A program made the position numbers and the translations under genes. 47,079 nt of DNA from Nevskiaceae bacterium (GTDB lineage: Bacteria > Pseudomonadota > Gammaproteobacteria > Nevskiales > Nevskiaceae), in contig JBOICR010000189.1 of assembly GCA_050740195.1 (NCBI GenBank), positions 1 to 47,079 on the forward strand, given 5' to 3'. Positions within the stretch are counted from its first letter, which is position 1, and each line of letters starts with the position of its first letter. This document shows positions 2,919 through 21,300 of this stretch, in pieces. The notes under the pieces are model-generated. The model was not told the DNA's origin. It worked only from the letters and a program-made list of their open reading frames with translations, and ran no database searches.

Positions 2919-3042
2919 TATTCAAATGAATGTTGTCAGTGAACTATTTCACAGATCGTCTGTAAAATAGTTGGCAGAACTGTCGTATAGCCTGAGGTAA
3001 CATCCACGAACACTGTCGAAATTCCTCTACATCAGGAGAACG

Positions 3043-3645
3043 ATGATGTCCACTAGACAGTTGGGTTTAAGCATCGGTTTAGCGTTAGCGTTCACCGCGG
3101 GAGTGTCGGGGGCGCAAGAGCTTTATTGGACACCCTGGGTTTCGGAAGAGAACGAGAGCCCCCCTACCATCTGCCAGGCACGGAACGAGGGGGCCGTCGG
3201 GTTCGGTTGGCCCGGTAGGTACTGTGACAATGTGCGACTTCTGTGCGAGACAATGCCCTACGGCATTGAGGTCGAGCAGTCGACAGACTATTGGTCGAAC
3301 TACTTCTCGGAGGAAGACAGCGGGCTCGGGACCGTTACTTCGGAGGGCTGGTACCGCTACGACGGCGACAACTACGAAGTCTGCCATCGGACCAACACCG
3401 CTGGCGTGGTCACGGGAATCGCCTGCACGGGCCGGTACTGCGACAACATCTCGATCGAGTGCGGTCGACCAGTCAAGTACAAGGCCGGCGCTACGCATTC
3501 GGCGCGACTAACGAACTGTGGCTGGCCGGGGTGGTACTCCGAGGAGCAGGGATCGGGCGACCATTTCTTCCTAGATACAGCCGAACCACTGCTTCTGAAG
3601 ACAATTGCTCGGGAGCGGCAGCACTCTGTGCGGATGTTCGCGTGA
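3043..3645 (+). CDS. secreted Cys-rich repeat protein, unknown family
   Basis: AGGAG at 3034-3038 lies before ATG 3043. The N-terminus MMSTRQLGLSIGLALAFTAGVSGAQE looks like a signal peptide. Internal repeats: W..SEE three times (WVSEEN, YFSEED, WYSEEQ) and GxxxxGRYCDN(V/I)x(L/I)xC twice (GFGWPGRYCDNVRLLC, GIACTGRYCDNISIEC). Confidence 0.6.
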   Translation: MMSTRQLGLSIGLALAFTAGVSGAQELYWTPWVSEENESPPTICQARNEGAVGFGWPGRYCDNVRLLCETMPYGIEVEQSTDYWSNYFSEEDSGLGTVTSEGWYRYDGDNYEVCHRTNTAGVVTGIACTGRYCDNISIECGRPVKYKAGATHSARLTNCGWPGWYSEEQGSGDHFFLDTAEPLLLKTIARERQHSVRMFA

Positions 3646-3650
3646 AGAAC

Positions 3651-4478
3651 ATGCCGGTAAACTCACCGCGTCCTTGGTGGAACCTTGCCCCAAAGACCCC
3701 AGTGCTGAGCAGCGACGAGGTGCATATCTGGTCTGCGAAATTAGACCAGACCGTGTCTCGCACGCATAATCTACAGCAGACCCTGGACGGAAACGAACGA
3801 GCAAGGGCCGAGCGCTTTTATTTCAGGAGAGACCGAAACCACTTTATCGTCGCGCGCGGGATTTTGCGGGTGATTCTCAGCCGCTATTTGAACAGCGACC
3901 CCGGCGATCTACGCTTTTGCTATAGCCCCTATGGAAAACCGATGCTAGCAAAGGAGTTTGACGGGGATCGGTTACGTTTCAACCTATCGCACTCCCACGG
4001 TCTAGTTCTCTATGCCATTACGCGTGGCCGGGAGATCGGTATCGACATAGAACGCATCCGTCCCGACCTAGCCTATGAACAGATCGCGGAGCGGTTTTTC
4101 TCTCCTCGGGAGGTGGCTGCGCTTCAAACCGTCCTCACGAGTCGCCAGCTAAAAGCGTTTTTTGACTGTTGGACCCGCAAGGAGGCGTACATCAAGGCTC
4201 GGGGCGAAGGACTTTCGCTTCCGCTGGACCGGTTTGACGTATCACTGGCCCCAGGGGAGCCAGCCACTTTATTGAGCACTGTTGGCGACCCACACGAAAC
4301 AAGCCGTTGGTCTTTACGGGAATTGGACTTGGCCCCTGGCTATGTGGCTGCTTTAGCTGTAGAAGGACATGACTGGCGACTAAAATGCTGGCAATGGGCG
4401 GAGGCGGATCCTGTAACACCAAACAGCGAACGACCGACAGAGCAAAATTCTCGGACCAACGCAGTCCCCCCGGTTTAA
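3651..4478 (+). CDS. Sfp-type 4'-phosphopantetheinyl transferase
   Basis: Motifs RFNLSHSHGLVLYAI, IGIDIERI and FFDCWTRKEAYIKARGEGL fit the FN(L/I)SHS, GxDxE and WxxKEAxxK motifs. The start is ATG 3651 (GTG 3642 is an alternative). The 395-aa track ORF from 3291 is an open-frame extension across the preceding gene. The last ~25 aa (EADPVTPNSERPTEQNSRTNAVPPV) extend past the usual family end. Confidence 0.85.
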   Translation: MPVNSPRPWWNLAPKTPVLSSDEVHIWSAKLDQTVSRTHNLQQTLDGNERARAERFYFRRDRNHFIVARGILRVILSRYLNSDPGDLRFCYSPYGKPMLAKEFDGDRLRFNLSHSHGLVLYAITRGREIGIDIERIRPDLAYEQIAERFFSPREVAALQTVLTSRQLKAFFDCWTRKEAYIKARGEGLSLPLDRFDVSLAPGEPATLLSTVGDPHETSRWSLRELDLAPGYVAALAVEGHDWRLKCWQWAEADPVTPNSERPTEQNSRTNAVPPV

Positions 4479-4611: not shown

Positions 4612-4801
4612 ATGAGAAAGTTACGTGAGATCCTCGGGCTCAAATATGAGGCCAAGCTTCCGCACCGGTGATTGGCCGGGCGTGCGGCATTGGGGCGGGG
4701 ACTGTCTCGACCCTAGCTAACGCGGAGCGGTGCGCGCCGCGCTGCCGGGACTCCCGCAGGAGCACGGCGGGCGGGGAGTACGCGGCCGGTGCTTCCCCCA
4801 G
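4612..4801 (+). mobile_element. IS21-family istA 5' relic, at least two frameshifts
   Basis: Three consecutive pieces lie in three frames: MRKLREILGLKYEAKLPHR* (4612-4671), VIGRACGIGAGTVSTLANAE, and RAALPGLPQEHGGRGVRGRCFPQ (to 4801). They are collinear with the IS21-family IstA N-terminus as I recall it (MRKIREVLRL..E.GLS.R.IAR.CG.S..TV..YL.RA..AGLSWPLP......LE.RLFP). It lies antisense to the 3' tail of the RND gene. Confidence 0.45.
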
Positions 4802-7800
4802 CACTGGCACGCGACCGGCGGAAGCGCGCCGGCGGCGGGCGATCCATTCCTCGAAGTCGCGCACGTAGCTGAAGAGCACGGGCATGAAAACAAGGCTCAG
4901 CACGGTGGACGAAATCAATCCGCCGATCACGGCGAGGGCCATGGGCGCGCGGAAAGCGGGGTCGAGGCCGAGGCTCATCGCGGTCGGCAGCATGCCCGCA
5001 GCCATCGCGAACGAGGTCATCACGATTGGGCGTGCACGTACCCGGCAGGCGAGCAGAATCGCCTCGTTGCGCGGCACGCCCTCGCGCATCCGTTCCAGGA
5101 TGTAGTCCACGATCAGGATCGAGTTCTTGTCCGCGATGCCCATCAGCATGAGGATGCCGATCATGGCGGGCAGCCCCAACTCGCTGTGCGTGAGGAACAG
5201 CAGCGCAAAGGCGCCGCCGATGGAGAGCGGCAGCGCTGCCATGCGCGTGAGCGGCTGCAGCCAGTCCTTGTACAGCAGCACCTGGATCGCATAGACCAGC
5301 AGCAGGCCAGCGCCCAGTGCCTTGAGGAAGTTCGCCATCAGCTCGGCCATGAACTCGGCGTCTTCCGTGTTCAACACCTGCACGGTCTTCGGCAGGCCTT
5401 GCATGGAAGGCAGGGCGTAGATCTGCTCGAGTGCGGTGCCGAGCGCGATCCCGTTCAAGTTAGCCTCGAGCTTGATGCGCCGCTGCCGGTCGTAGCGCTC
5501 GATCGTCGTCGGGCCCATGCCGAAATGGATCGTCGCGACGGCCGACAGGGACACGCTGGTGCCGGCCGGCGTCGGCAGCTTCAAGTTCTCGAGCACTCCC
5601 AGGTCGCGCCCAACCGGCGGCAGGCGCACGCGGATCGGGATCTGCCGATTGCGGTCGTTGAACTGTGCCAGGCGCGCGTCGTTGTCGCCGACGGTGGAGA
5701 TGTTCACGGCATTGCCAATCTGCTGGGCGGTAATACCGAGCCGCGCGGCCTTGACCGAATCCACCGCCAGCGTGATCTCGGGCTGCTTTTGGCCCGCGCT
5801 CGTGCCGACGCTGCTCAGGCCCGCGAGGCCGCGCATCTCGCGCTCGATCGCCTCGGCGCTGCGCGTCAGCGCCTCGGTGTCCTCGCTGACCAGCGCGATG
5901 GAGATGTCTTTTTCTCCCACCGCGTTGTCGAAGGTGATGCGCACATCCGGCAAGGCCGCGAGCGTGGGTAGCATCGTGTTGCCGAATTGGCGTTCATCGA
6001 GATGCCGCTGTTTCGGCGGCACCAGCGTCGCCAGCACGCGCGAGCGGTTGACGCCGCCGCTGACCTGGCCCGTCGTCGTCAGCACGTTGCTGACCTCGGG
6101 GCGCGCTTTGAGCAGTGCCGCGACCTGCTGGGCCTTCACATCCGTCTCCTCCAGCGTGCTGCCCTGCGGCAGCTCCAGCGTGAGGCTCGACAGCGAGAAG
6201 TCCTGGTAGGGCATGAAGCCGCTGGGCAGCAGGGGAACGAGCGCGAAGGACAGCACCACCGTCGCGGCGGCGATCGCCAGCGTCTTGCCCCGATGCCGCA
6301 GCGTCCAATCCACCAGGCGCTGATAGCGTTGCATCCAGCGACCATCGCGCTCGGCCGTCGGCGGCACGGGTCGTAGCAGCTTGGCAGCGAGCATTGGCGT
6401 CAGCAGCCGCGCGACAAGCAGCGAGAAGAAGGCCGCGATGGCCACCGTGAGGCCAAATTGGCGGAAGTACAGCCCCGGCACGCCACCCATCAAGCTCACC
6501 GGGACGAAGACGGCGCAGATCACCAGCGTGGTGGCGATAACGGCCAGGCCGATCTCCTCGGCCGCGTGGATCGCCGCCTCGAACGGGCCCTTGCCGGCAC
6601 GCATGTGGCGATGGATGTTCTCGATCTCAACAATGGCGTCGTCGACTAAGGCGCCAGTAACCAGGGAAATGGCGATGACGCTGACGAAGTTCAGCGTGAA
6701 GCCCAGCCACTGCATGCACATAAAGGTCGGGATGACCGACAGCGGGATGCTCAGGGCTGTGATCAAGGTGGCACGCCAGTCGCGCAGGAAGCCGAATACG
6801 ACCACCAACGTGAGCAGCGCCGCCTCGAACAGCGTGTACAAGGTGGACTTGTAGCCGGTTTCGGTGAGCGTCACCAACGAGAACACCCGGCGGAACTCGA
6901 GATCGCCGCGTTGCTTCGCGATTTCCGCCAGGCGCGCCTGCACTTTCCGCCCGACGGTGACCTCGCTCGCCGCCCGAGTGCGGAAAATGGAAAAAGTGAT
7001 CGCCGGCCGGCCGTCGAGCCGCGTGATCGTGCGTGTCTCGCCGGCGCCGCTCTCGACCGTACCGAGGTCGCTCAGCTTCACTTCGCGGCCGCTAGGCAGC
7101 GCGATGCGCATGTCGCGTAGCTGTTCCAGCGTCGCCGCGCTGCCAACGGTGCGCAGCGCGTACTCGGTGCCTTCCAGCGTCAGGCGGCCGCCCGGGACGT
7201 CGGCGTTCGTTTGCGCTAGCTGGCGGGTTATGTCCGCGGCGGTAATGCCGAGCGCGGCCAGCCGGGCCGCATCTACCGATATCGTGAGCTCGAGGTCGGC
7301 ACCGCCGCTGCGCGCCACGCGCGCGACGCCGCCGATCGCGAGCAGCTCGCGGCTAAGCGTGTCGTCGATGAACCAACTCAACTCCTCCGCGCGCATCTCC
7401 GGCGCCTCGACGCTGTAGATCAGGATCGCCTCGCCGGCCTCCGTCTGGCGCTGGACCAGCGGTTCTTCCACCGCCGCCGGCAAACGGCTGCGGACGGTCG
7501 CGACCGCATTGCGCGCGTCGTTCACGGCACGGTCGATGTCGGTCTCCAGCGTGAACTCGACCGTCGTGAGCGACACGCCTTCCGACACCGTCGAGGTGAT
7601 GTGCCGCACGCCCTGCATCGCCGCCAGCGCCCCTTCGATCTTGCGCGTGATCTGTGTTTCGATCTCGGACGGCAAGGCCCCGGGCTGGTCCAGCTGCACG
7701 GTCACCACCGGCACGAGGACGTTCGGCATGTTGGTGATCGGCAGCTCCGCGTAGGCGATCAGCCCGGCGACGGTGAGCAGCAGGAACAGCACGATGGGCG

Positions 7801-7843
7801 GGATCGGATTGTGGACGGCCCAGGTCGAAACGCTGTACGCCAT
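4640..7843 (-). CDS. RND efflux transporter, inner-membrane permease subunit (HAE1/AcrB-MdtB-like)
   Basis: 1067 aa. The N-terminus MAYSVSTWAVHNPIPPIVLFLLLTVAGLIAYAELPITNMPNV..VTVQLDQPGALPSEIETQITRKIE is typical of RND pumps. Hydrophobic blocks alternate with two large soluble loops. It starts 4 nt after the adaptor gene stop. The last ~61 codons (4640-4824) look non-native (see findings). Confidence 0.9.
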   Translation of the reverse strand: MAYSVSTWAVHNPIPPIVLFLLLTVAGLIAYAELPITNMPNVLVPVVTVQLDQPGALPSEIETQITRKIEGALAAMQGVRHITSTVSEGVSLTTVEFTLETDIDRAVNDARNAVATVRSRLPAAVEEPLVQRQTEAGEAILIYSVEAPEMRAEELSWFIDDTLSRELLAIGGVARVARSGGADLELTISVDAARLAALGITAADITRQLAQTNADVPGGRLTLEGTEYALRTVGSAATLEQLRDMRIALPSGREVKLSDLGTVESGAGETRTITRLDGRPAITFSIFRTRAASEVTVGRKVQARLAEIAKQRGDLEFRRVFSLVTLTETGYKSTLYTLFEAALLTLVVVFGFLRDWRATLITALSIPLSVIPTFMCMQWLGFTLNFVSVIAISLVTGALVDDAIVEIENIHRHMRAGKGPFEAAIHAAEEIGLAVIATTLVICAVFVPVSLMGGVPGLYFRQFGLTVAIAAFFSLLVARLLTPMLAAKLLRPVPPTAERDGRWMQRYQRLVDWTLRHRGKTLAIAAATVVLSFALVPLLPSGFMPYQDFSLSSLTLELPQGSTLEETDVKAQQVAALLKARPEVSNVLTTTGQVSGGVNRSRVLATLVPPKQRHLDERQFGNTMLPTLAALPDVRITFDNAVGEKDISIALVSEDTEALTRSAEAIEREMRGLAGLSSVGTSAGQKQPEITLAVDSVKAARLGITAQQIGNAVNISTVGDNDARLAQFNDRNRQIPIRVRLPPVGRDLGVLENLKLPTPAGTSVSLSAVATIHFGMGPTTIERYDRQRRIKLEANLNGIALGTALEQIYALPSMQGLPKTVQVLNTEDAEFMAELMANFLKALGAGLLLVYAIQVLLYKDWLQPLTRMAALPLSIGGAFALLFLTHSELGLPAMIGILMLMGIADKNSILIVDYILERMREGVPRNEAILLACRVRARPIVMTSFAMAAGMLPTAMSLGLDPAFRAPMALAVIGGLISSTVLSLVFMPVLFSYVRDFEEWIARRRRASAGRVPVLGEAPAAYSPPAVLLRESRQRGAHRSALARVETVPAPMPHARPITGAEAWPHI

Positions 7844-7847: not shown

Positions 7848-8918
7848 CTATTCCTTCACCACGGCGACGAGGTCGCCTTCCTTGAGGAAGGACCCCGCCT
7901 TCGCCACGATGGGCGTGCCGCCCAGTGATTCCTTGACCACCGCGCTGCCGGCCGTACGCATGACGACGGTCACGGGCTTGCGCGCCGCCACGTTTTTAGG
8001 ACCGACCTGCCAGACGTACATGCCCTGCGCGTCCTGCTGCAGCGCCGTGCCCGGCACGACCCAGCCACCCACCTTGGCCACGGTGATGCTGGCCTCGCAG
8101 AAGGCGCCGACCGGCGCCGCGCGCTCGCGCTCGAAGCGGATGCGCACGCCGGTGGCTCGGCTGGTGATGTCGACCAGCGGCATGATCAGCCGCACGCTGC
8201 CGGACTCCGGCGCGCTTTCGCCGGCGACCTTCAGCGTGACCGGCATGGCAGGCTTCAGCCGCTGCACCAAGGCCTCGGGCACGCTGGCTTCCATTTCCAC
8301 CTTGCCGTCCTTCGCGATGCGGAACAGCGGCTCGCTGCCGTTGGTCAGTCCACCGATCGTCGCGGTACGTTCGTAGATGAGCCCGTCCGTCGGCGCGACG
8401 ATCTGCGTCCGGTTGATGTTGAGCTGGGCGTCGCGTAGCCGTGAGCGCGCAACCTCGAAGGCGGCCTGGCGCTGTTGCAGCGACTCCTTGCTGATCACGC
8501 CGGACAACTGCAGCTCCTTGAACCGGGCGTACTCGTCACGCGTGCGGCCGAAATGCGACTGCAAGCTCTGGCTCTGGATGCTCAGGCTCTCGCCGTCGAG
8601 CAGGGCGATCCGCTGTCCTTGCTTGACGTAGTCGCCGGTCTCCGCGTAGACGGCGCGCACCCGCAGGCCGGCGAGTTCCGATATCACCACCACGTTCTCG
8701 CGCGGCACTACGGTGCCGATGACACGGATGTTGTCATCTAGCGTTTTCTGCGCCGCCGCGACGACGCTCACGCTGAGCACCGGCAAGGCCTTGGCTGCCT
8801 GCACCGAGGGCTTGGAGACGCCGCTCACGCCGACCCATGCGCCCATCCCCAGGCCGACCACCACCAATATCATGCCTAACGTGACTGGTCGCTTGCTCAT
8901 AGGGTGCTCCTTGCTCAT
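7848..8918 (-). CDS. RND efflux periplasmic adaptor (membrane fusion protein)
   Basis: 356 aa with an N-terminal TM/signal anchor (VTLGMILVVVGLGMGAWVGV). It has lipoyl/hairpin/beta-barrel signatures: GTVVPRENVVVISELAGLRVRAVYAETGDYVKQGQRIALLD, a coiled-coil stretch, and INRTQIVAPTDGLIYERTATIGG. ATG 8918 overlaps the upstream stop (ATGA). Confidence 0.9.
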   Translation of the reverse strand: MSKEHPMSKRPVTLGMILVVVGLGMGAWVGVSGVSKPSVQAAKALPVLSVSVVAAAQKTLDDNIRVIGTVVPRENVVVISELAGLRVRAVYAETGDYVKQGQRIALLDGESLSIQSQSLQSHFGRTRDEYARFKELQLSGVISKESLQQRQAAFEVARSRLRDAQLNINRTQIVAPTDGLIYERTATIGGLTNGSEPLFRIAKDGKVEMEASVPEALVQRLKPAMPVTLKVAGESAPESGSVRLIMPLVDITSRATGVRIRFERERAAPVGAFCEASITVAKVGGWVVPGTALQQDAQGMYVWQVGPKNVAARKPVTVVMRTAGSAVVKESLGGTPIVAKAGSFLKEGDLVAVVKE

Positions 8919-11224
8919 AGAGTGCTCATCGTTGTGGGGACGTCGATCCGGTGCCGCGTGAGCGCCGAGCGCGCCCGTGAATAGGCCAAATCCTGCAATT
9001 CGGAAAACTTCGCGTCGTAGGCACGCACGATGCCGCGCGGCGACACGAAGTCCTGGCCCGCTTGTTTGTAGAAATACCGCAGCACCTCGAATTCGCTGTC
9101 GCTACCGGACGCCTCGCTCATCAGGTAGTCGATGAATTCGAGCGCCGCGCTCTCGTGCACGAAATTCCAGGTCACCGAGATCGAGTCCTCGACGACCAGA
9201 ACGTCGTGCAGCCAGCCGTGCGGGATGTAGATCACCTCGCCGGGACGCACGAAACCGTGGAAGTCCGGTGGCGCGGACAGCATCGTCGGTGTGGGGCGCA
9301 CGTCGACGAAGCCGCCGAACGAGGTGCCGTCCGCGCGCCGCGCGCATAGCTCGTCGGCGCGCTCGGGACGATAGAGCACGACTTCCTTCACGCCGCTGAG
9401 CTGGCACACCACCGCGTCGCTGCAGAATGGGTCGCGGTGCAGCCGCGTGCGTGCGCCGCGCGCCGACACCAGCACGCCGCGATAGGGAAAGGCGTCACGG
9501 ACCGCGTCTGCGATCGGCTTGGCCGGCACGAGCATGCCGCGCTTCGGCATGAACGACGGCATGCGCCAATGCGGGCTCAGGCGGCGGAACGCCTCGTCGC
9601 CCCAGGCGTGGTCCACGTCCTTGAGTTTGTTGTACCAGCGCACGTAGGGGACCTTGTCGCGGTACTCGCCCGGCACGCCGAAATGCTGGTCCAGGTACGC
9701 GGCGAGCGTGGAAACCTCTTGCAGTGCAAACAGCGTGTCGTACACCTGCACCGGCAGGTTGCCGAGGCGGGCGCGGAAATGCTTGGGCGTCCAGCGGTCG
9801 CGGTCGAACGCCAGGTCACGCACGACGACGGGCAGGTTCGTACTCAGGTAGTTCTCGACGAACTCCTTTTCGGTCAGCGCGTCCAGGACCTCCAACGGCT
9901 TGGTATGGCTATTCCCACCTGGAGCGCGCGCCGGCACCGGCAGTTTTTTATCCAGCGCGACCGCGCTGCCGAGGTGCAGCTCCACCGCTGCGGCGATGAC
10001 GGCGAGGCCACGCTCGAGCACTTCGCGCTCGATGGTCAGCGCGGGCATGATCTTCAGCACCTGCCCGCGCGCGCCGCAGCTTTCGATGACCAGGTTGTTC
10101 TCGAAGCACAGGGTTATAACCGCGGCCGTATCGTGCTCGGAATCGAACTCGATGCCCTGCATCAAGCCCAGGCCGCGCGTGCCGCGGATGCGCGCCGGGT
10201 GCCGGCGGGCGATGGCCTCGATGGCGTGCCGGATGACCGCCTCCTTCGCGCGGAGTTCGTCTTCCATCCTGGCGCCGCTCCAGTAGCGCTGAAGCACCTC
10301 GACGGCCGCCACGAAGGCGAGGTTGTTGCCGCGGAAGGTGCCGTTGTCCTCGCCCGGCGACCACATGTCGAGGTCAGGGCGGATCAGCAGCAGCGCCATC
10401 GGGAAGCCCATGCCGCCGATGGATTTCGACAGGCAGACCATGTCTGGCTCGATGCTCGCGCGTTCGAAACTGAAGAATCGGCCGCTGCGGCCGCAACCCG
10501 CTTGGATGTCGTCGACGACGAGCGGGATCTCAAATTCCCGCAGCAGCGCACGCAGGCTGCGCAGCCATTCGACGGAGGCGACGTTGAGCCCACCCTCGCC
10601 CTGAATCGTCTCCAGGATCACCGCCGCCGGCAGGTCGACGCCCGAACTCCCGTCCTCGAGCAGCTTGCGCAGCAGCGCCACCGTATCCACGCCCTCGCCC
10701 AGATAGCCGTCATACGGCAGCCGCGTGACGGCGCCGTAGGCGACCGCCTGCCTGTGATACCGGTTGGCCGTCAGGTTCAAGGACACGCCGGTCATGCCGT
10801 GGAAGGCGTTGGTGAACGCGATGACGTTCTGCCGGCCGGTGACCTTGCGCGCCAGCTTGATCGCCGACTCCACGACGCTGGTGCCCGTGGGACTGGTGAA
10901 CTGCAGCTTGTAGTTGAGGCCGCGCGGCAGCAGGATCAGCTTCTGGAACGCCTCGATGAAGTTCTTCTTCGCCCTCGAGTGCAGGTCCAGGCTCATCATG
11001 ATGCCGTCGGCGCCGATGTAATCCAGCACCGCGCGCTTGGCGACGTCGTTGTTGTGCCCGTAGTTCAGGGCGCCCGCGCCGCACAGGAAATCGATGTAGG
11101 CCTCGCCGTCGTCGTCGTAGAGATGACTGCCCTTGGCCCTGGAGAACAGCACCGGGAATCCCCGACAGTAGGAACGGGCTTCCGATTCGTGTCTTTCGAA
11201 GGTCGCGAGTTTGTTCGAGCTCAT
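8915..11224 (-). CDS. fusion protein: diaminobutyrate--2-oxoglutarate aminotransferase (EctB/PvdH/Dat-like) + JmjC/cupin Fe(II)/2OG-type oxygenase domain
   Basis: 769 aa, single frame. See the two domain entries below. Confidence 0.85.
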   Translation of the reverse strand: MSSNKLATFERHESEARSYCRGFPVLFSRAKGSHLYDDDGEAYIDFLCGAGALNYGHNNDVAKRAVLDYIGADGIMMSLDLHSRAKKNFIEAFQKLILLPRGLNYKLQFTSPTGTSVVESAIKLARKVTGRQNVIAFTNAFHGMTGVSLNLTANRYHRQAVAYGAVTRLPYDGYLGEGVDTVALLRKLLEDGSSGVDLPAAVILETIQGEGGLNVASVEWLRSLRALLREFEIPLVVDDIQAGCGRSGRFFSFERASIEPDMVCLSKSIGGMGFPMALLLIRPDLDMWSPGEDNGTFRGNNLAFVAAVEVLQRYWSGARMEDELRAKEAVIRHAIEAIARRHPARIRGTRGLGLMQGIEFDSEHDTAAVITLCFENNLVIESCGARGQVLKIMPALTIEREVLERGLAVIAAAVELHLGSAVALDKKLPVPARAPGGNSHTKPLEVLDALTEKEFVENYLSTNLPVVVRDLAFDRDRWTPKHFRARLGNLPVQVYDTLFALQEVSTLAAYLDQHFGVPGEYRDKVPYVRWYNKLKDVDHAWGDEAFRRLSPHWRMPSFMPKRGMLVPAKPIADAVRDAFPYRGVLVSARGARTRLHRDPFCSDAVVCQLSGVKEVVLYRPERADELCARRADGTSFGGFVDVRPTPTMLSAPPDFHGFVRPGEVIYIPHGWLHDVLVVEDSISVTWNFVHESAALEFIDYLMSEASGSDSEFEVLRYFYKQAGQDFVSPRGIVRAYDAKFSELQDLAYSRARSALTRHRIDVPTTMSTL
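9080..9898 (-). other. domain: JmjC / cupin-8-like oxygenase (aa ~443-715)
   Basis: The facial-triad candidates are TRLHRDPF (HxD) and IYIPHGWLHDV (distal His, compare the (Y/F)IPxGWWHxV consensus). It is preceded by the linker AVALDKKLPVPARAPGGNSHTKP. Confidence 0.7.
9965..11224 (-). other. domain: class-III PLP aminotransferase, DABA-transaminase type (aa 1-420)
   Basis: FERHESEARSYCRGFPVLF, LNYGHNN, FTSPTGTSVVESAIKLARKVTGR, ILETIQGEGGLN, VVDDIQAGCGRSGRFFSFE, PLP-Lys context CLSKSIGGMGFPMA, GEDNGTFRGNN. These are collinear with EctB/PvdH-type enzymes as I know them. Confidence 0.85.
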
Positions 11225-11273
11225 GGCTTGCCCTGTAATTGATGTCGGTTGTGTGAATACGCTGAGGCCGTGG

Positions 11274-12344
11274 TCACCACTTGAACCGCAGGCGCGCGAA
11301 TACGAGCGTGAACACGCACCACCCGCCGAGAACGACGATCTCGGCGTATAGCTTCGTGATGTTGTGGAATCCGACCGAGCCGAACAGCAACTCGCGCATC
11401 GCGGTGTTGAGCTGCGTCAGCGGCATCACGCGCGTGACGGTCTGCAGCCATTCGGGGAAGGCGCTCACCGAGAAGAACACGCCGCCGAGGAGGATGAGCG
11501 GCATCTGCACGAAGTTCACGATGCCGTTGAATGCAGTCACCGACGGACTGGCGGTGGCGAGTACCAGACCCAGGCCGAGGAAGGACACGCAGCCCAGCGT
11601 GATGACGACCAGCAGCAGCGGGTAGTTGATGTCGGCCGGTATGCCGAACGCCAGCACGCCGATCAGCATCAGCGCCATCGCGATGCTGTAGCACACCAGC
11701 AAGCGCGAGAAGAACAGGCCGGCCAGGAATGGCAGCGGCGAGGCGTCGATGGTCTTGATGTTCTTGAACAAGCCGTGATCGCGCTCCTCGATCAGCACGC
11801 CGCCGAAGCCGTTCAGGCCGACGATCAGCAAGGTCATGCCGATGAGTCCGGGCAGCAGCGTGACGAGATAAGAGGTGTAGCGGTTGGTCGGCAACTCGTG
11901 CAGCTGTGCCGGCGCCGCTTCGGCGGCGCGCAGCGACTCGTCGACGATCGCGCGAAGAGCCGTGTTCTCGACCTGGTTCTCGGCCAGCGAATTGGCGTAC
12001 AGCTCCCCCACGAAACCGCCCTTGGCCTCCGGCGCGGCGCGCAGCTCCAGGTAGTGCTTGACGTCGTTGTTCATCAGCGCCTGCTGCGCTGATACCTCGG
12101 GCTTGGCATACGGCACCAGCTGCACCAGGGCACGGCCTTGCAGGCGCTGCACGAAGGCTGCGCTGGCATCGGTCGTGGCCAGGTCGGCGTAGGCCACCGC
12201 GATCACCGGCTTGTCGCGCATCTGCATCGGATAGCCGACGCCCAGCAGTAGCAGCACCGGCAAGAAGTAGCAGAAGAACAGCGCCGTCTTGTCCGATTTC
12301 AGCTGCAGCATGCGCAGCTTCATGAATATCCAGCTCTTTTTCAC
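11274..12344 (-). CDS. ABC-2 type exporter permease
   Basis: 356 aa. TM1 (ALFFCYFLPVLLLLGVGY) is followed by a ~130-aa extracytoplasmic loop and then five further hydrophobic helices (..LVTLLPGLIGMTLLIVGLNGFGG.., ..FLAGLFFSRLLVCYSIAMALMLIGVLAF.., ..LLLVVITLGCVSFLGLGLVLA.., ..VNFVQMPLILLGGVFF.., ..IVVLGGWCVFTLVFA). GTG 12344 overlaps the NRPS stop (GTGA). ATG at 12323 is an alternative start. Confidence 0.85.
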   Translation of the reverse strand: MKKSWIFMKLRMLQLKSDKTALFFCYFLPVLLLLGVGYPMQMRDKPVIAVAYADLATTDASAAFVQRLQGRALVQLVPYAKPEVSAQQALMNNDVKHYLELRAAPEAKGGFVGELYANSLAENQVENTALRAIVDESLRAAEAAPAQLHELPTNRYTSYLVTLLPGLIGMTLLIVGLNGFGGVLIEERDHGLFKNIKTIDASPLPFLAGLFFSRLLVCYSIAMALMLIGVLAFGIPADINYPLLLVVITLGCVSFLGLGLVLATASPSVTAFNGIVNFVQMPLILLGGVFFSVSAFPEWLQTVTRVMPLTQLNTAMRELLFGSVGFHNITKLYAEIVVLGGWCVFTLVFARLRFKW

Positions 12345-15300
12345 AATGGCAGCTCCTTGCCCGTGTGCGACAGGAACACGTCTTCCAGCGTCGGGCGGTT
12401 GATGTCAAAGTTCACCACGTCGATGCACGCGGCATGGCTCAACGCGAGCACCTCGCGCAAGGTGTCGGTCACCCGCGGCGTGCGCAGGCGCAGGCAGTCG
12501 GTGCGCTCGTTCCAGTCAGCATCGGTGGCCTCCACGACGCCGTCGAGCATCTCCGGCCGGAACTGGCCGCGGCCGAACTGAAACTCGATCGAGTGGTGCG
12601 CGCCGAGATTCTTGGCCAACTGCAACGGATTGCCCTGCGCGATGACCCTGCCCCGGTCCATCAGCAAGATCTCGTCGCACAGCCGTTCGGCCTCCTCCAT
12701 GTAGTGCGTGGTGAGGATGACGGTCTTGCTAGGGTCCTGTTTCAGGTCCTCGATGAACTCCCAGGTCGAGATGCGGCTGTGCGGATCGAGCGCGGATGTC
12801 GGCTCGTCGAAGAAGATCACGTCCGGGTCCTCCAGCAGCGCGATGGCGATGGACAACCGCTGCTTCTGGCCGCCGGACAGCTCGTCCACCTTGAAGTCGA
12901 GCTTGTCCTTCAGGTCCAGCCGCTCCAGCAGCGAATCCGCCGACCGGCCGCGGCGCTTGCCGCCTACGGCGGCACGCAGTTCCTGGTAGAACTTGAGCAG
13001 CTGCGCCACCGTGAGGAACTGGAAGTAGTTGTTCTGCTGCAGTTGCACCCCAACGTGCGGTTGGATGCGGTGGATCTCGCTGGCCACGTCCATGCCGAGC
13101 AGGCGGATGGACCCGGACGTGATCGGAACGATCCCTTCGATCATGGCCAGCAGCGAGGTCTTGCCGGCGCCGTTGGGGCCGAGGATGCCGAAGCAGCAAC
13201 CCTGGCGCACCGAGAAGCTGACGCCCTTGACGGCTTCGAGATCTCCGTAGCGCTTGCGCACGTCGCGCACTTCCAGGGAGTAGACCGGGGCAGCGACTGA
13301 CAGCGGCGCAGCAGCGGCTCCCGCGGCATCTTCGTGCGCGACGTCGCCGGCCGGCAGCGGTGCGGTTGCGCCGACCTCGCTACCCGCCACGCTGCGCCTC
13401 ACCGCTTCGGAGTCGGCCGCATCGCCGCGGAAGGCGCAGTGCAGCTCCAAGCCCTCGGCGCCGACGGCAGCCTCGAACAGGATGCCGCGAAAGTCTTTCA
13501 GCTTGTCCATCAGGAATCCCCCGTCCGGCGCTGCGGACTGTTGCAGCGCGTCCGCCTGGAAATTGAAGAGCACCTCGCACTCGAGCGGCGGCAGCGTGCC
13601 GTCCCACTCGGAGCCTGCCGCTTGCGCCAAGCCGAGATAGTTGATGCCGAGTCTTTGCAGCAGCTGCGCTCTGGCCGCAAGTCGTTCCAAGGCGGTGTCT
13701 GCATCCACCGCAAAGGGCACCTTGTCCAGGAACAGGCCGACCTGGTCGAACCAGCGCTCGCCGCCCGACTCACGGCCATGGTGGTTGAGCAGCACGCCGT
13801 AGCGCGCGAGCCCGGTGAGCCGCTCGACGCAGCGTTTGAAGCATCGGAACGCCTGCTCCGCGGGCGTGCCGTCGGCGACGTCGAGCGGCAGGTGCAGCTG
13901 CAGGCTTTGCAGCGGGGCCTGGGCGCGGCGCAGCAGCGCATGCTGCGTGGTGTGCATCGTGGCGGCGAGATCGACGCGGGCTATGGCCGTGTTCAGCATC
14001 GCCGCGGCCTGCGCGTCCGGCAGCCGCCACACCGCATCGACATAGCTCCGGTAGTTGCGGCTGAGGCCGCCGGCGGTGCCGCGCAAGTGCTGCTGCAGGC
14101 GCTGCTGCAGCACCGCCGCCGACATGCCGTCCCAGACGAGATGGTCGACGGCCAGCAGCAGCCGGTGCTCGAGATCGCCCAGCGAAACCACCGCGGCGGC
14201 ATAGGCCAGCGGCGTGGTCTTTCTGGCGGCCAGAAGTTCGGCGCCCAGGCGTTTCAGCAGCTCACCGTGCCTCGCAGGATCGTGTGCGCTCAGGTCCACG
14301 GCCGGTATCGAGGCCGCCGCGATCGCGTCGGCCTCCAGCAAGCGCCACTGCGCCGGCGTGTCGTCGGGTGCCGCGCGCAACAGATCCTGCTCGGCGGCAA
14401 CGTCGGCAAACGCCTGTTGCAGCTCCGCCGCGGTGTACCAGCCTTGCAGCGCAACCATGTCGATCCTGTCACGGCTTTGCCAGGCCATCAGGTTGCGCTG
14501 GATCGGGCTGAAACGCAGGGAGGTCTCCACCGGCGCGTTCGCAAGCCGTTGCTGATGGACCTTCAGCTGCGCCCGCAACGCGTCGAACAACGCGGCCTCG
14601 GTCTGCACCGGCGCCAGCGCCGCAATGCCGGCCTCCCCAACCTGCTGCGACAGCGCGGCCAGATCATCGGCGTAGCGCACGAAGTGCGGACGCTGCTGCG
14701 GCTCCACCGTGGCGAGCAGCGTCTGCAGGGTCTTGCGCCGCGCGCTCTCGCTGCGATCGAGCAGCAGGGCGGTGCGCCGCGGGTTGCCGCCCAGCGTGAC
14801 GATCGCATGACGCCAGCCGTCGTCCAGCGGCCAGTCCGCTGCGCCATGCCGCTGCGCATCGATCGCCGCCGCGCAGGCGCTCACGGTGCGCAGCTGGTAT
14901 ACCTCGGTGACGCCGAGACTCATGCCCTGGTCCTTCCACCGGCTCAGCATGCGGATCAGCAACAGCGAGTTGCCGCCCAGATCGAAGTAGCTGTCGCCAC
15001 GACCGACCTGCGGCAGCTGCAGCAATTCCTGCCAGAGCGCGGCGATCGCGCGCTCGGTGTCGCTCTGCGGCGCCTCGTATTCAGCCCGTGCGAACGCGGC
15101 CGAGGTCGGCTCGGGCAAGGCCTTGCGGTCGACCTTGCCGTTGGCATTCAACGGCAAGGCGCCGAGCACGACGATCGCTGCCGGCATCATGTAGTCGGGC
15201 AGCTGCGCACGAAGGTGCGCCTGCAGCGCCTCGGCGCCGACGGGCGCCTCCAGCGTCACATAAGCGACGAGATGGTGATCGCCTGGAGCGCGCTCGCGTG

Positions 15301-18300
15301 CGGCCACGATCGCTTCGCGCACCGCCGGGTGCTGCGCGAGGCAGCTCTCGATCTCGCCCAGCTCGATGCGGAAGCCGCGGATCTTCACCTGGAAGTCCTT
15401 GCGTCCGATGAACTCGAGACTGCCGTCGGGCCAGCGCCGCACCAGATCACCGGTGAGATATACGCGCTGCTCGCCCGCATGTCGTGCACGGGGATTGGTT
15501 CTGAAGGCGGCTTGCGTTTCTTCAGGGCGGCCGATGTAGCCCCGCCCGACCACCGGCCCCGAGATGGCCAGCTCGCCCACCGCGCCAAGCGGCAACAGCA
15601 TCAGATGCTCGTCGACCACGTGCAGCTGTGCATTGGCGACGGGCTTGCCGATCAGGACACGCTCCACCGGCGCAAGGATCGCCTGGAACGCCACATCGTC
15701 GGAGCATTCCGCTGGCCCGTAGGCGTTCATCAGCGGGATGCCGGGGTACTGCTCGAACCAGCGCGCCACCAGCTCGCGCGACAGCGCCTCGCCGGTCGGC
15801 ATCACCCAGCGCAAACAGGTCATCGGCTTGCGGCAGGTCAGTGCGGCCTGCATGACCGAGGGCACCGGCTCCCATACCGTGGCCCGCTCCGCGGTCAGGT
15901 GGTCGAGCAGCGCCTCGGGGTCGCGCGTGAGGTCGTTCGCCACGATCAGCACCTTCCCTCCGAGCAGCAACGCCGTGAGGAACTGCCAAACGGAAATGTC
16001 GAAGCACTGCGAAGCGGTCTGCGCGATCACGTCGTCTGCGCCGAGCCCGAGCGGCTCGAACTTCGAGCGCATGTTGTTGACCATGCCGCGGTGCTCGATC
16101 ATCACGCCCTTGGGCTTGCCGGTCGAGCCGGAGGTGAAAAGCACGTATGCCAGGTCGTCCAACGCCGGATAGGGCAGCGCCGTCGTTGCTGGCGCAGGGC
16201 CGGCCAGCAGGTCGGCCATGCTGCTCACCTGGCCCGCCGTCCACTTGCGACGCAGCCAGCGCTTCTCCGTCGCGAGGCCGTCACCCACCCACAGGATCAG
16301 CGGCTGCGCCTCTTGCAGGACATCCAGCCAGCGCTGCGACGGGTGCTCCGGATCGAGCGGCATGTAGGCCGCGCCGGATTTCAGCACGGCGACGATCATC
16401 ACCAGCAGGTCGATCCCGCGCTGGTCCAGCAGCGCCACGATCTGGCCGGGGCCGGCGCCTTGCGCCACCAGCTTGGCGGCGAGCCGCGTGGCGCGCTGCT
16501 GCAGTTCACGGTAGCTCAGCTGCGCCGTGCCGCATCGCACCGCAATGCGATCGGGTGTGCGCGCGGCCTGCTCGTCGAACGTCTCGGGCCAGCCCCGCTC
16601 GTACAGCTCCGGCCGGCTGGTGTCGTTGAAGGCCTGCAGCAGCCGGTGCTCGTCATCACCGAGCAGGTCCAGCGACTGCGCCGGCCGCTCCATGTCGGCA
16701 ACCATTGCCGCGACCACGCGCTGCAGGTAGCCGACCTGACGCTGCATGGTCTCGGCATCGAACAGCGCCGTGGCGTATTCGAAAGCGCCGGCGATACGGT
16801 CGCCGTTCTCGCCGATGTCCAGCGTCAGGTCGTACTTCGACAGCGTGCCGGGTGGGCGCAGCGGCGTGGCCTGCACGCCCTCGAGCGCATAGTCGTTCAG
16901 GCCCTGGTCCTGCCAGTTCAGCATCAGCTGGAACACCGGCGTGTGGGCCAGGCTGCGCGGCGGCTGCACGATCTCCACCACCTGCTCGAACGGCAGCTCC
17001 TGGTAGCGTTGTGCATCGAGCACTTGGCGTTTCACCCGCTGCAGCAATTCGGCCAGCGTCGGGTTGCCCGACAGGTCCAGGCGCAGCGCCAGCGGGTTCA
17101 CGAAGAAGCCGATCATCGGCTCGGTGTCGAGCTGCGCGCGGTTGGCCACGGGGGTGCCGATCACCAGGTCGTGCTGTCCGGACAGCCGGGACAGCACCAC
17201 CGACCAAGCCGTCAGCAACGTTATGAACAGCGTGGTGCCATGATGCCGGCTCAGCGCCTTGAGCTGCACGGTCGTCCCGACGTCGAAGCCGAGCTCGACC
17301 AGGTCGCCTGCATAGTCCTGCTGCACCGGACGCGGCCGGTCGATGGGCAGCTCCAGCAGCGGCGGCGCGCCGGTCAGCGTGCGCCTCCAGTAGTCGCTTT
17401 GCTCCTGCCACAGCGCGCCGGTCAGCCATTGCTGTTGCCAGGCGGCATAGTCGGCGTAATGCAGCGCGAGCGGCGGCAGCGGATCGTCGCCGCCGCTGAC
17501 GTAGGCGGCGTAAAGCGCCTGCAGTTCCTGCTGCAGCAGCGCCAGCGACCAGGCGTCCATCACGATGTGGTGCATCATGATCAGCAGCACATGGTCGTCC
17601 GGCCCGACGCGCACCAGATCCCCACGGATCAACGGTCCAGCCATCAAATCGAACGGTGCGTCGAACGCATCGCTTATCAGGCGCTGGGCTGCCTGCTCGG
17701 CATCGGTCCGGTCGCTGAAGTCGTGCGTTCGAAGCGTGAAGCCGACGTCCTCGGCGGCGATGCGTTGCGTCGGCTCGCCGTCGATCGCATGAAAGGTCGT
17801 GCGCAACACTTCGTGTCGCGCCACGATGCGGTCTAGCGCGCGCCGCAGCGCCGTTGCGTCCAGGCGCCCGCGCAGGCGCAGCGTCCCCGGGATGTGGTAC
17901 GTCTGGCTCACGCCTTCCATCTGGCCGAGGAACCACAAGCGGTGCTGTGCAAACGACAGCATGAGCGGCTTGTCGCGCGGCACCCGCGAGATCGGCGGCA
18001 ATGCGTCGCGTGAAGCCTGGTCCACGGTTGCGGCGAAATCCGCGAGCACCGGCCACGCGAACAGCTCGGCCACGTCCATCTCGGCGCCAAGCTCAGCACG
18101 CACTCGCGCGATCACCCGCATCGCCAGCAGGGAATGCCCGCCCAGCGCAAAGAAGTCCGACTTGGCGCCGATCTGCTCGGTGCGCAGATGCAGCACAGAT
18201 GCCCAGATCGCCGCCAGGCGCGCCTCTGTCGCCGTGCCCACCGGCATGTTGTCGCCGCCCACATCCAGCTCGGCGGGCTCGGGAAGCGCCTTCTCGTCCA

Positions 18301-21300
18301 GCTTGCCGTTCTTCGTCAGCGGCAGTTGTTCCAGGATCAGGATGGCCTGCGGCAGCATGTACTCGGGCATGGACAGCCGCATGAAGGCGCGTATCGAGGC
18401 CTTGAGCTCTTCCTCGCCGGCCGATGCCTGTGCCGGCACCACCCAGGCCAGCAGCCGCTGCTCGCCGCCGGTGCCGCGCACCAGCACGGCCGCATCCCGG
18501 ACCTGCGGGTGGGCCTGGATGCGACCCTCGATCTCGTTCAATTCGATGCGGAAGCCCCGCAGCTTGACTTGGCGGTCGCGCCGGCCAACGAATTCGATGC
18601 AGCCGTCGTCGAGCCAGCGGCCGAGGTCGCCGGTGCGATAGACGCGCCCGCCCTCGACCCAGGGGTCGGGGATGAACTGGCAGTCGGTGAGCTCGGGTCG
18701 ATTCAGGTAAGCTTGGGCTACGCCGTCGCCGCCGATCCAGATCTCGCCGGTCAGTCCCGGGGCGCACAGCTGACCGAGGCGGTCGACCACGTACATGGTC
18801 GTGTTGGAGATTGGCTTGCCGATCGACAGCGTCCGCCCTTTGAGCGCACCCGGCTCGCACACCCAGGCGGACGACAGGATCGTCGTCTCGGTGGGGCCAT
18901 AGCCGTTGATATAGCGGCAGCGCTCGCCCCAGCGCCGCACGAGCTCGAGCGTGGGAGCCGACCCCGCGGTCAGCAGCGTCAGGTCCGGCGGCACGAGCGC
19001 GGGATCCATCTGCTGCAGATAGGTCGGCGGGAAGGCGGCGAAGCGGATGTCGTGTGCGCACAGATACTGCGCAAGCGCGCGCGGGTCCTGGATCAACGCG
19101 TCGGCCAGCAGGTGCAGTTCGGTACCGGCGAGCAGTCCGGCAAAGATCTCGCCGGCCGAGGCGTCGAAGGTATAGGGCGCGAACTGCGTCGTTCGGTCGC
19201 CCGCCCGGAACAGGTCCACCTGCGTGCACCAGGAGCAGAAATTGACGAGGTTGCGGTGGGAAATCGCAACGCCCTTGGGCGTCCCCGTGGTGCCCGAGGT
19301 GTAGATGACGTAGGCGGTGGCCTGCGGGTCCACGTCGACCAGGCGGCCATCGGCATCATCGAGCTCGGCCGGACAGTCCTCCAGGCAAAGCAGGTTCTCG
19401 TCCGCCGGCGCGTCGCGCCCGGACCGTTGCGTCAGCGTGCAGCGGATGCCGGCATCGGCCAGCAGGAAGGCGCGGCGCTCCGGCGGACAGTCGAGCGCGA
19501 TGGGCACGTAGGCGGCGCCGAGACGCGTGACCGCCAGCATCGCGGCGACCAGCGTCGGTTCCTTGCGCAGGGACAGCGCCACGCGCGAGCCCGCCGACAC
19601 GCCGTTGCGGGCCAGCCAGGCCGAGAGGATGCGCACCCGTTCGTCCAATTGTTCATATGTCCACGTTTCCTCGCCACAGACGATGGCGACGGCCGCGCCG
19701 CGGCTGCGTGCCGTCGCCTCGAACAGCGCCGGCAGCGCGCGATCGCCCGGATATGCCACAGCCGTGTCGTTCCACTGCCGAACCGCCCGCTCCTGCTCGG
19801 CCTCGCTCAGAAGGGACAACTGCGCGAGTGTCTGCCCGCCGCCCCTGGCGAAACTGGCGAGCAACCGCTCAAGTCGGCGCAGCAGCGTCGCAATGGTCTG
19901 CGCATCGAACAGCGCCGTGCGGTAGGCCAGCTTGAGCGCCAGGCGCTCGCCGGGATAGACCGCCAGGTTCAGTGCGAAGTCGTTCTGCTCGACGCTCTCG
20001 ATGGCGACGATGCGGGGAAGATTGGCCGCCGCGGACAGCACCGAGCGGTCCAGCGGATAGTTTTCGACCACCACCAGGCTGTCGAACAGCGCCTGCCCAC
20101 CGCGCGCGCCGCTGCACCGCTGGATATCCGCCAGCGCGAAGTGGCCGTGGTCGTCGTGGTCCAGTTGGCGGCGCTGAATCTCCTTGAGCCAGGCGCCGAG
20201 CCTGCAATCGCCATCGATCTTCAGGCGCAGCGGCAGTGAGTTGATGCAGATGCCGACCAAGGATTCGCTGCCGGCGAGTTCCGGCGAGCGGCCGCTGGCG
20301 GCATAGCCGAACAGCACTTCCGGCTCGGCGTTGTACTTGCTCAGCAGCAACCCCCAGGCCGCAAACATCAGCGGGCCGAGGCCCACGCCCTCGGCGCGCG
20401 CGAGCCGCGTCAGCCGCGCCGTAGCCTCGACCGGCAGCATGCGCGTCTCCAGCGCCTGTTCGTAGTGCCGCGGCGGCGCCGCGTCATCGGCGCGCAGCGG
20501 TGCGAGCGGCAAACTCGCGCTGGCGGCGATGTCGAGGCCGTCGAAGTAGGCGTGCCAGTAACGTTCCGCCGCCGGCCGGTCGCGCGACTTCAGCCATTCG
20601 ACGTGATGCCGCCAGGCGGGCCGTGCCGCTGTCGCCGGTTCCGAACCGGCGTAGATCTCGAACAGTTCGTTGATCAGCAGCCCGATCGACCAGCCGTCGA
20701 GCAGCGCATGGTGGTGGGTCCAGGCCAGGCAATGGCCTTCGTCGCTCGTGCGCACCAGCAGGAGGCGCATCAGGGGCGCGGCCGCGACGTTGAATGGCTG
20801 CGTCCGCTCTTCCGCCAGCAGCCGTTCCAGCGCGTCCGCACCGCGGAGCGTCCGGCCGTCCACTTCGCGCCAGGGCAGCTCGACGCGCTCGCAGACCACC
20901 TGCAGCAGGCATGCCAGGCCGCAATCGACGAAGGCCGTGCGCAGCACATCGTGCCGCTCGAGCAGCGCCTGCCAGCTTTGCCGCAGCCGCGCCGCGTTGG
21001 CGCCGTCGAGCTCGATCCGCAGCTGAGTGAGATAGACCCCACTCTGCGGCGCGCGAGCACTGAACAGCAGCAGGCCCTGCTGCATGCCCGTGCAAGGGTA
21101 GACGTCCTTGCAACCGGGATAGCGCGACTTCAGCGCGGCGATGTCGACCGGCGCCAGTTCCGCGAGCCCGAATGCGTTCGATACGGCGGTGTCCGCCGTC
21201 CCCATGCAGTGCGCAACGATCGCGCGCAGGGCCTCTACGTAGCGCGCGGCCAGCGCAGCAATGGTGCCGTGCTCGAACTGCTCCCGGCTGTAGTCGAAGC

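Follow-up and report, generated by a model that had tools for sequence, protein, structure and literature searches.

For cereulide, which is made in Bacillus cereus by a nonribosomal peptide synthetase (NRPS), the transporter ATPase CesC was found to contact the C-terminal condensation (C) domain of CesA (C*) non-covalently (PMC7527721). CesC brings C* to the membrane, and its Walker A lysine is needed (PMC7527721). Loss of CesCD or the Walker A replacement K40M abolishes cereulide synthesis with no accumulation, and CesC binds C domains only (PMC7527721). Here we analyzed a 47,079-nucleotide stretch of DNA from a Nevskiaceae bacterium (assembly GCA_050740195.1, contig JBOICR010000189.1, positions 1 to 47,079; hereafter, the window), in which the last NRPS gene of a biosynthetic cluster runs in frame into the ATPase domain of an ATP-binding cassette (ABC) exporter. 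As in CesCD-CesAB, an NRPS is physically coupled to the ATPase of an ABC exporter encoded directly behind it; the Ces contact is non-covalent, whereas in the window both partners belong to one polypeptide (PMC7527721). An ABC exporter ATPase that holds a terminal C domain is already published; the covalent NRPS form is, as far as our literature searches could tell, uncharacterized.

Biosynthetic or processing activities covalently joined to membrane export are found in the membrane-embedded NRPS epsilon-poly-L-lysine synthetase (Pls) and in peptidase-containing ABC transporters (PCATs). Unlike the window protein, Pls contains no ABC ATPase but transmembrane helices that lie between its C-like domains, and in PCATs a small protease is fused to a full half-transporter, in contrast to a megasynthetase with a lone ATPase domain. 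The ATPases of DrrAB-, NodIJ-, and ABCA-type exporters stand alone or are joined to the membrane domain with which they work, and fusion of one to a biosynthetic megasynthetase is not known. An NRPS::ABC ATPase fusion was not described anywhere in the full-text literature searched, but subscription journals were thinly covered, so that this is absence of evidence only. A preliminary description of the window had seen no characterized precedent. Within the literature searched, this stands for the covalent fusion but not for the coupling as such, for which CesC/CesA is a non-covalent precedent (PMC7527721). Its further suggestion, that the fusion is the strongest candidate for an undescribed system, had to be given up: given the Ces contact and the relatives with a separate ATPase, the locus is a variant of a known theme.

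The NRPS frame and its junction with the exporter ATPase

The NRPS (Table 1) comprises four adenylation (A) domains, carrier domains, and C and epimerization (E) domains, followed at the C terminus by a C-like domain (domain X), a linker, and the nucleotide-binding domain (NBD) of the exporter. Translation of positions 12341-15040 on the minus strand yielded ...GLELHCAFRGDAADSEAVRRSVAGSEVGATAPLPAGDVAHEDAAGAAAAPLSVAAPVYSLEVRDVRKRYG... with zero stops. Across the junction, the frame reads, in order, ...GLELHCAFRGDAADSEAVRR SVAGSEVGATAPLPAGDVAHEDAAGAAAAPLSVAAPV YSLEVRDVRKRYG... and is uninterrupted by a stop. Both other frames contain stops within the linker, and the longest homopolymer run in the linker does not exceed 4. 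Codon-position GC is uninformative there, since the Ala, Gly, and Pro codons push up GC at positions 1 and 2. In the AlphaFold2 (AF2) model, the linker has a predicted local distance difference test (pLDDT) score of <50. The predicted tryptic peptide spanning the linker in the window is SVAGSEVGATAPLPAGDVAHEDAAGAAAAPLSVAAPVYSLEVR.

The NRPS stop lies in the DNA context ccattgTGAaaaag, where it overlaps the permease start as GTGA. A scan of positions 11200-14900 for promoters and terminators revealed nothing exceeding the shuffled expectation. The permease thus located appears, from its overlapping start, to be translationally coupled to the fused NRPS.

In addition to the motifs listed in Table 1, the NBD contains the Q-loop VGVQLQQ, the Walker B region VIFFDEPTSALD / VIFFDEP with the catalytic Glu, the D-loop SALD, and the H-loop TTHYMEE. 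Pfam ABC_tran (PF00005) matched it with 106 bits against a cut-off of 25, which makes it a member of this family. The NCBIfam model drrA (TIGR01188) aligned over its entire length (1-302 of 302) with 245.6 bits, under the curated cut-off of 312.45, and the NodI models also matched with scores under their cut-offs. The NBD resembles the DrrAB/NodIJ/ABCA-type ATPases in this end-to-end alignment with the drrA and nodI models and in having an ABC-2 permease as partner; by these scores it can be described as DrrA-like, outside the curated DrrA membership. Its best matches in the PDB were the ATPase domains of ABCA7, ABCA3, ABCA1, and ABCA4 and the full-length ABC-2-type ATPase 4yer. An ATPase and an ABC-2 family permease encoded as separate, adjacent polypeptides, the layout of an ABC-2 (type V) exporter, are present in the window and conserved in all relatives. 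The functional unit of such exporters consists of two ATPase and two permease subunits and performs ATP-dependent export.

The preliminary description had proposed a complete in-frame NRPS::ATPase fusion with an intact set of NBD motifs and with the NRPS stop overlapping the start of the ABC-2 permease gene. The 5740-aa open reading frame (ORF), the stop-free junction, and the presence of Walker A, Q-loop, LSGGQ, Walker B, D-loop, and H-loop bear this out, and the overlap is kept in relatives. It had also named a frameshift or stop between the C domain and the NBD as a point to check; the assembled sequence has none, and the relatives (ATPase 33-77% identical) stay in frame. Because the relatives keep the frame across linkers that differ in length and sequence, all of them lacking an ATPase start codon, the frameshift explanation fails. 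The fusion of a peptide synthetase to an exporter ATPase in the window is thus confirmed as real.

Fused, split, and relocated forms in related clusters

Whether C-domain::NBD fusions recur in related clusters or are split there had been left as a question by the preliminary description, and both states were found. The in-frame fusion is present at 12 or more independent loci and, when the proteins are clustered at 50% identity, in at least 10 clusters; it spans 35% to 73% GC and recurs across many uncultured soil bacteria. With the last 839 aa as query, a protein search retrieved P0001 (67% identity, full coverage), P0002, and P0003, each with both domains. A pattern scan of one genome per species added ten loci at which a single tblastn segment covers both domains. 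The hosts of these ten are Lysobacteraceae/Lysobacterales metagenome-assembled genomes (MAGs), a Thermomonas MAG, and unclassified Proteobacteria or Gammaproteobacteria MAGs. Inspection of the DNA showed that the frame containing Walker A is open for >3800 codons, up to the locus edge, in L004-L009, L011, L013, and L015, and that in L001 and L002/3 the frame is open across the NRPS/ATPase junction. One of these loci, L006 (CALRWS020000014.1), carries the label of a "Chitinophaga pinensis" MAG. With 69% GC and with 92-98% identity in this region to the Thermomonas MAG locus L015, the contig is probably mis-binned.

Among 1.84 billion cluster representatives searched, we further found P0123-P0130, NRPSs of 1564-6483 aa to which the query aligned end to end at the C terminus. 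Several of these clusters contain 3-5 independent full-length members of identical length. Protein searches with domain X alone or with an extended profile returned 5-6 relatives only; the long NRPSs emerged from the representative search. One full-length fused protein is named "amino acid adenylation domain-containing protein" in the database. The fused form was also detected on a 35%-GC contig (P0137; locus L033 10001-23154, Logan SRR34261158). In this 4017-aa NRPS, three C-A-carrier modules precede a domain that the X profile matches with 106 bits; a short linker then leads into the ATPase, and a permease whose start overlaps the NRPS stop comes next. In-frame continuity at 11 other loci, in eight further full-length representatives, and in this distant homologue exceeds what chance would give. 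By tblastn against 72,556 plasmids, no record covered both domains; the best hits were free ATPases of 38-39% identity.

The fused homologues have linkers of 30-73 aa that are unrelated in sequence and all in frame. In every fused form, a Met at the position of the free-ATPase start is absent, and the NBD motifs are intact in all of them. All fused relatives, L033 included, have an ATGA overlap equivalent to the GTGA of the window, followed by a permease beginning with MKK.W. Across relatives, conservation is much higher in the ATPase domain (63-77% identity) than in the C-like domain (33-62%), and the permease is syntenic with 54-74% identity. We conclude that the fused arrangement is old and widespread.

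The unfused state was found in the isolate Paraherbaspirillum soli KACC 12633 (L010) and at the metagenome locus L031. In both, the NRPS ends ~26-30 aa past a conserved FRG motif, and its TGA overlaps the ATG of the ATPase gene (ATGA). The free ATPase has 312-315 aa and begins with MIYSLEV/I; at that place the window has PVYSLEV, with the codons CCG GTC TAC instead of the ATG ATT TAT of the split forms. The NRPS AIY41033.1 of Collimonas arenae Cal35 (P0134) has the same kind of unfused tail, ...NTTDIGNL. The split relatives, including the LT85 cluster of C. arenae Cal35, match the window in gene order and in the C-like domain (40-41% identity), ATPase (71-74%), and permease (54-63%), and differ from it in having the ATPase as a protein of its own, with the ATG of its gene overlapping the stop of the NRPS gene. 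Genes for EctB, cupin, and resistance-nodulation-division (RND) proteins were not found behind L010. The linker of the window appears, from this comparison, to be a former C-terminal NRPS tail that is read through into the ATPase.

A conserved Met or Val ~35 codons before the ATPase domain was considered as a general internal start and rejected; the split forms have Leu there. Similarly, an in-frame GTG in the linker of the window (Table 1) is not conserved as a start, the aligned residue being Leu in the split relatives.

In other relatives the ATPase is located elsewhere. At L034 (40% GC), which like L033 stems from a very distant low-GC lineage and whose cluster front is of the same type as that of the window, a free ATPase/permease pair sits between the acyltransferase gene and a downstream gene with a canonical C domain, which is incomplete at the locus end. 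At L035 and L036, free ATPases adjoin the aminotransferase of the cluster. Several arrangements coexist in the Lysobacteraceae MAG TF_15, which has four NRPS termini of the C-like type. Two are fused copies (L004 and L005) that are identical in the compared region and have different downstream genes, and two (L012 and L014) have no ATPase nearby. Behind L014, we found a gene for an RmlD-like reductase and two genes for S9 peptidases.

When the ATPase domains were compared by neighbor joining, both split forms clustered with each other (99% bootstrap) and were sister (94% bootstrap) to a fused clade of the window, L001, and P0123, the whole being nested among further fused lineages. Since the split forms nest within fused lineages, the state must have changed at least twice, by several fusions or by a fission. 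In summary, the transporter belongs invariably to this cluster family, and the fusion is the commonest arrangement among the relatives recovered, yet it is not obligatory.

The terminal domain and the surrounding gene cluster

Domain X is reached by Pfam Condensation (PF00668) with 22.9 bits only, under the cut-off of 30.6, and over just residues 498-618 of the 1199-aa C-terminal piece. A phmmer search of X against PDB sequences gave chance matches only. In contrast to these single-sequence comparisons, hhalign of a 17-member X profile against the C/E domains of the window itself gave a probability of 97.3% (E = 2.7e-11, 357 columns), and in this alignment the DHLVWDG motif of X falls on HHxxxDG. 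The first His is thus replaced by Asp; the catalytic second His is retained, as are the Asp and Gly. Relatives mostly have DHL[IV][WS]DG; P0137 has DHIIYDQ, and three have no match to the search pattern. The AF2 model of X has a mean pLDDT of 59.3 and is good in the C-lobe only. With this model, all of the top 50 Foldseek matches in the PDB were C, E, Cy, CT, or starter-C domains (E down to 1.5e-8), the TM-scores being just 0.24-0.36 with the N-lobe poorly modeled. By profile alignment and model together, X is a divergent domain of the condensation superfamily in which the catalytic His and Asp are retained.

A conserved stretch of ~110 aa (Table 1) separates the last carrier domain from X. 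Neither Pfam nor the PDB sequences gave a match to it, and the alignment of X with C domains by hhalign does not extend into it. AF2 predicted beta-alpha-beta elements in it, with a pLDDT of ~60-79.

There is no thioesterase domain in the NRPS, and the unassigned ORFs of the window gave no Pfam hit. Since the window holds no thioesterase, X is the sole candidate for the chain-release catalyst. Chain release by terminal C domains has precedent (PMC10587159). X resembles C13 of glidonin GdnB, the malleobactin domain, and the fungal CT domains in that a C-type domain stands in place of a terminal thioesterase (PMC10587159). The catalytic His and Asp are kept in X, and CT domains were among its Foldseek matches. 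X differs from these releasing domains (PMC10587159) in being far more divergent, under the Pfam cut-off, and in the extra N-terminal stretch of ~110 aa.

Table 1. Features of the window
Feature	Position	Strand	Basis and remarks
trans-Acyltransferase (trans-AT) polyketide synthase (PKS), ketosynthase (KS)/dehydratase (DH)/ketoreductase (KR)/acyl carrier protein (ACP) modules ending in a C domain	33971-47044	-	Pfam
Epimerase/dehydratase	32970-33974	-	Pfam
Class I/II aminotransferase	31697-32941	-	Pfam
Small ACP, 95 aa	31381-31668	-	PP-binding only 18.9 bits; between aminotransferase and tandem acyltransferase
Tandem acyltransferase	29490-31388	-	Pfam
NRPS gene, 5740 aa, ATG start	12341-29563	-	ORF list, Pfam on pieces, motif map
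Last peptidyl carrier domain	14861-15049	-	Pfam PP-binding, residues 298-360 of the 1199-aa C-terminal piece
Conserved stretch of ~110 aa, carrier to C-like domain	14531-14860	-	Conserved in P0001 and P0004
Domain X, terminal divergent condensation-superfamily domain	13418-14530	-	hhalign, Foldseek
DHLVWDG motif of X	14126-14146	-	Residue position in motif map
Linker, 46 aa	13283-13420	-	Ala/Gly/Pro/Asp-rich
In-frame GTG, candidate internal start	13388-13390	-	GAGG 6 nt upstream; 34 codons before the ATPase domain
ABC ATPase domain (NBD), DrrA/NodI/ABCA class (ABC-2, type V exporter), including its C-terminal domain	12344-13282	-	Pfam, NCBIfam, PDB
Walker A GPNGAGKT	13157-13180	-	DNA read; Lys codon 13160-13162
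LSGGQ signature, within LSGGQKQR	12866-12880	-	Motif reading
Walker B VIFFDE	12803-12820	-	Motif reading
GTGA overlap, NRPS stop TGA 12341-12343 and permease start GTG 12342-12344	12341-12344	-	DNA read directly
ABC-2 permease, 356 aa	11274-12344	-	Pfam ABC2_membrane_3 107.3 bits, ABC2_membrane 74.6 bits
EctB-like diaminobutyrate transaminase fused to Cupin_8	8915-11224	-	TIGR02407 616 bits; Aminotran_3 and Cupin_8
RND adaptor	7848-8918	-	Pfam, NCBIfam
AcrB-type RND pump	4640-7843	-	Pfam, NCBIfam
Phosphopantetheinyl transferase gene	3291-4478	+	Between the low-GC window end and the RND pump

By its domains and gene order, the cluster looks like a solanimycin-like trans-AT PKS/NRPS cluster whose NRPS has four modules. 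In line with this, the order PKS, epimerase/dehydratase, aminotransferase, ACP, AT-AH, and NRPS is that of SolA-SolE (PMC9765074, Table 1). The comparison with solanimycin (sol) of Dickeya solani, made by gene order and domains, also extends to the PKS logic KS-DH-KR-T-KS-DH-T-T-KS-DH-KR-T-KS, after which the same genes follow (PMC9765074). In contrast to the window, sol has a thioesterase at its end and a MATE protein for efflux, and it lacks the ABC ATPase, the C-like terminal domain, and EctB (PMC9765074). The best database matches of the Sol proteins are homologues from Collimonas arenae and Lysobacter enzymogenes (PMC9765074). The front of the window cluster also matches the gene order of the C. 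arenae LT85_1869-1875 cluster.

In NRPS modules 1 and 2 (22664-29563), two consecutive condensation-type domains follow the carrier, with ~650 aa from the carrier Ser to the next HHxxxDG. This spacing suggests epimerization domains, and hence D-residues, at positions 1 and 2. The 10-residue codes of the A domains (GrsA-anchored) are DAAALAAILK, DVWLMGGSFK, DAGALAGILK, and DIWEMTAD-K, the last of which probably resembles the diaminobutyrate code, which would agree with the presence of the EctB gene. The product of the cluster is probably a solanimycin-like hybrid that contains diaminobutyrate.

Downstream, the order permease, EctB, Cupin_8, RND adaptor, and RND pump is conserved in seven relatives. 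EctB::Cupin_8 is a single 769-aa ORF in the window; the two are separate ORFs, mostly in different frames, in L002, L004, L006-L009, L011, and L015. This fusion, so far seen in the window only, could be real or an indel error. Positions 1-3000 of the window have a GC content of 0.59-0.61, compared to 0.65-0.70 in the cluster, and contain ORFs with no Pfam match; this low-GC part may mark the edge of the gene cluster.

Proposed coupling of chain release to export

We consider it probable that the last NRPS gene absorbed the ATPase of the cluster's own ABC-2 exporter, and that the result is a covalent coupling of the NRPS to this exporter. The ancestral state would have been an NRPS stop overlapping the ATPase ATG (ATGA), as still found in the split relatives. 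An indel would then have eliminated the overlap, and the ATPase start codon would have been lost afterwards. In the proposed mechanism, the ATPase domain docks on the permease dimer at the inner membrane and thereby holds the synthetase, by the end that releases the chain, at the exporter's cytoplasmic mouth. The product, which probably ends in 2,4-diaminobutyrate supplied by the neighboring EctB-like enzyme, would be released by the C-like domain beside the pump and carried by the exporter to the periplasmic side. The RND adaptor and pump would probably serve as a second export stage, across the outer membrane. If the NBDs dimerize on ATP, two NRPS chains would be present per transporter. PKSs are usually dimeric, and two NRPS chains per transporter would match the PKS that feeds the line. 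Membrane tethering, two synthetases per transporter, and the coupling of release to export, all put forward in the preliminary description, are inferred here, as are release by the C-like domain and two-stage export; docking and dimerization are drawn from established knowledge of ABC-2/type V exporters.

A more far-reaching proposal is that the C-like::ATPase part and the permease form a portable release-and-export module, in which ATP-driven dimerization, besides driving the pump, joins two NRPS termini, in keeping with the dimeric trans-AT PKS upstream, and allosterically gates the C-like domain. We regard this as speculative and rather doubtful. If it were true, a chain would be released only into a ready transporter, and an ABC ATPase would act as a mechanical regulator of a megasynthetase.

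The comparison with CesCD supports the proposed coupling in outline. Like the window system, CesC has a single ATPase domain with a C-terminal extension and a separate permease partner (PMC7527721), and an association of the CesCD type with a C-terminal condensation domain is given trivially in the window by covalent linkage in one frame. Unlike domain X, however, the C* domain of CesA fits the canonical C profile and not the X profile, and the Ces system belongs to a Gram-positive host and has no RND stage. The window system may therefore be viewed as working like Ces in outline while standing outside the Ces family.

Several observations weigh against the proposed coupling. Over the full length, the ATPase of the window and CesC share 25% identity (E = 3e-36), a generic level of similarity, and the permease has no significant match to CesD (E = 2.7), so that orthology to CesC/CesD was not found. 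The fusion is dispensable in the cluster family: L034 has a free pair upstream of the NRPS, and in L010 and L031 the ATPase is a separate gene. Because close relatives keep a free ATPase, the fusion could be selectively near-neutral. The NRPSs of L012 and L014 share the C-like terminus and have no ATPase nearby. In the window itself, the GTG at 13388-13390, with its Shine-Dalgarno-like GAGG, could yield a free ATPase. Finally, the AF2 model of the 839-aa region, made from a 5-row alignment, is poor (pLDDT, 57.9; predicted TM-score, 0.32) and uninformative on the interface between the C-like domain and the ATPase.

These observations bear on how the fusion is to be explained. It would be an artifact if a one-base indel in sequencing or assembly had wrongly joined the NRPS gene to a separate, overlapping ATPase gene. 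The close relatives with the split ATGA overlap are indeed one indel away from fused frames, and the window carries a second fusion unseen elsewhere, EctB::Cupin_8. However, there is no ATG at the ATPase start of the window, the 46-aa linker has homopolymer runs of ≤4, and the same fusion was recovered in at least 12 independent assemblies from various assemblers and samples, with clusters of 3-5 full copies of identical length. An artifact is therefore very improbable. It is also conceivable that loss of the ATGA overlap merely welded two coupled genes together, and that the product is an ordinary exporter ATPase, maybe also made in a free form via an internal start or linker cleavage, whose nearness to the release domain means nothing for the mechanism. 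Such a neutral origin would fit the persistence of fused, adjacent-split, and relocated-free forms in the cluster family and the more than one change of state, as well as the poorly conserved linkers of variable length and the in-frame GTG with GAGG in the window. On the other hand, the fused state is that of the majority and is held across lineages as different in GC content as 35% and 73%, whose ATPase domains share only 33% identity, and no fused form has retained a start codon at the old position. Furthermore, an N-terminal extension of ~620 kDa should be a burden to an ATPase that has to dimerize, unless the design allows for it, and experiments on cereulide synthesis showed that a transporter ATPase contacts a C domain (PMC7527721). 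We take a neutral origin as a serious alternative, albeit an unlikely one.

Another explanation is that the ATPase, like CesC, has a role other than transport: it would assemble or activate the synthetase at the membrane, with ATP binding gating synthesis or release, and the RND proteins would do most of the export. This would be in line with the loss of synthesis upon CesCD loss or K40M and with the binding of CesC to C domains only (PMC7527721), and the genes behind the fusion include an RND adaptor and an RND pump that are conserved along with it. It is at odds with the translationally coupled ABC-2 permease beside the ATPase at every locus examined, fused or not, and the ATPase of the window is no close homologue of CesC. 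Moreover, RND pumps draw from the periplasm or the outer leaflet, so that an inner-membrane step would still be needed. A role restricted in this way seems quite improbable to us, although an activating role like that in Ces is possible and compatible with export.

Coupling of the NRPS to its exporter is thus the reading we prefer, and it bears on a largely open matter, namely where assembly-line synthetases are placed in the cell and how they hand over to export. The cereulide system is the sole direct evidence for contact between an NRPS and an ABC transporter. A widely conserved covalent fusion is a "Rosetta stone" for such contact, indicating that in one large cluster family, if not more, the two parts act next to each other. 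The series of fused, adjacent-split, and relocated-free forms provides a ready comparison for the effects of tethering on yield, self-protection, and release chemistry, and at least two split relatives, Paraherbaspirillum soli KACC 12633 and Collimonas arenae Cal35, are cultured. The C-like::ATPase and permease cassette is also a possible part for engineering export-coupled NRPS lines.

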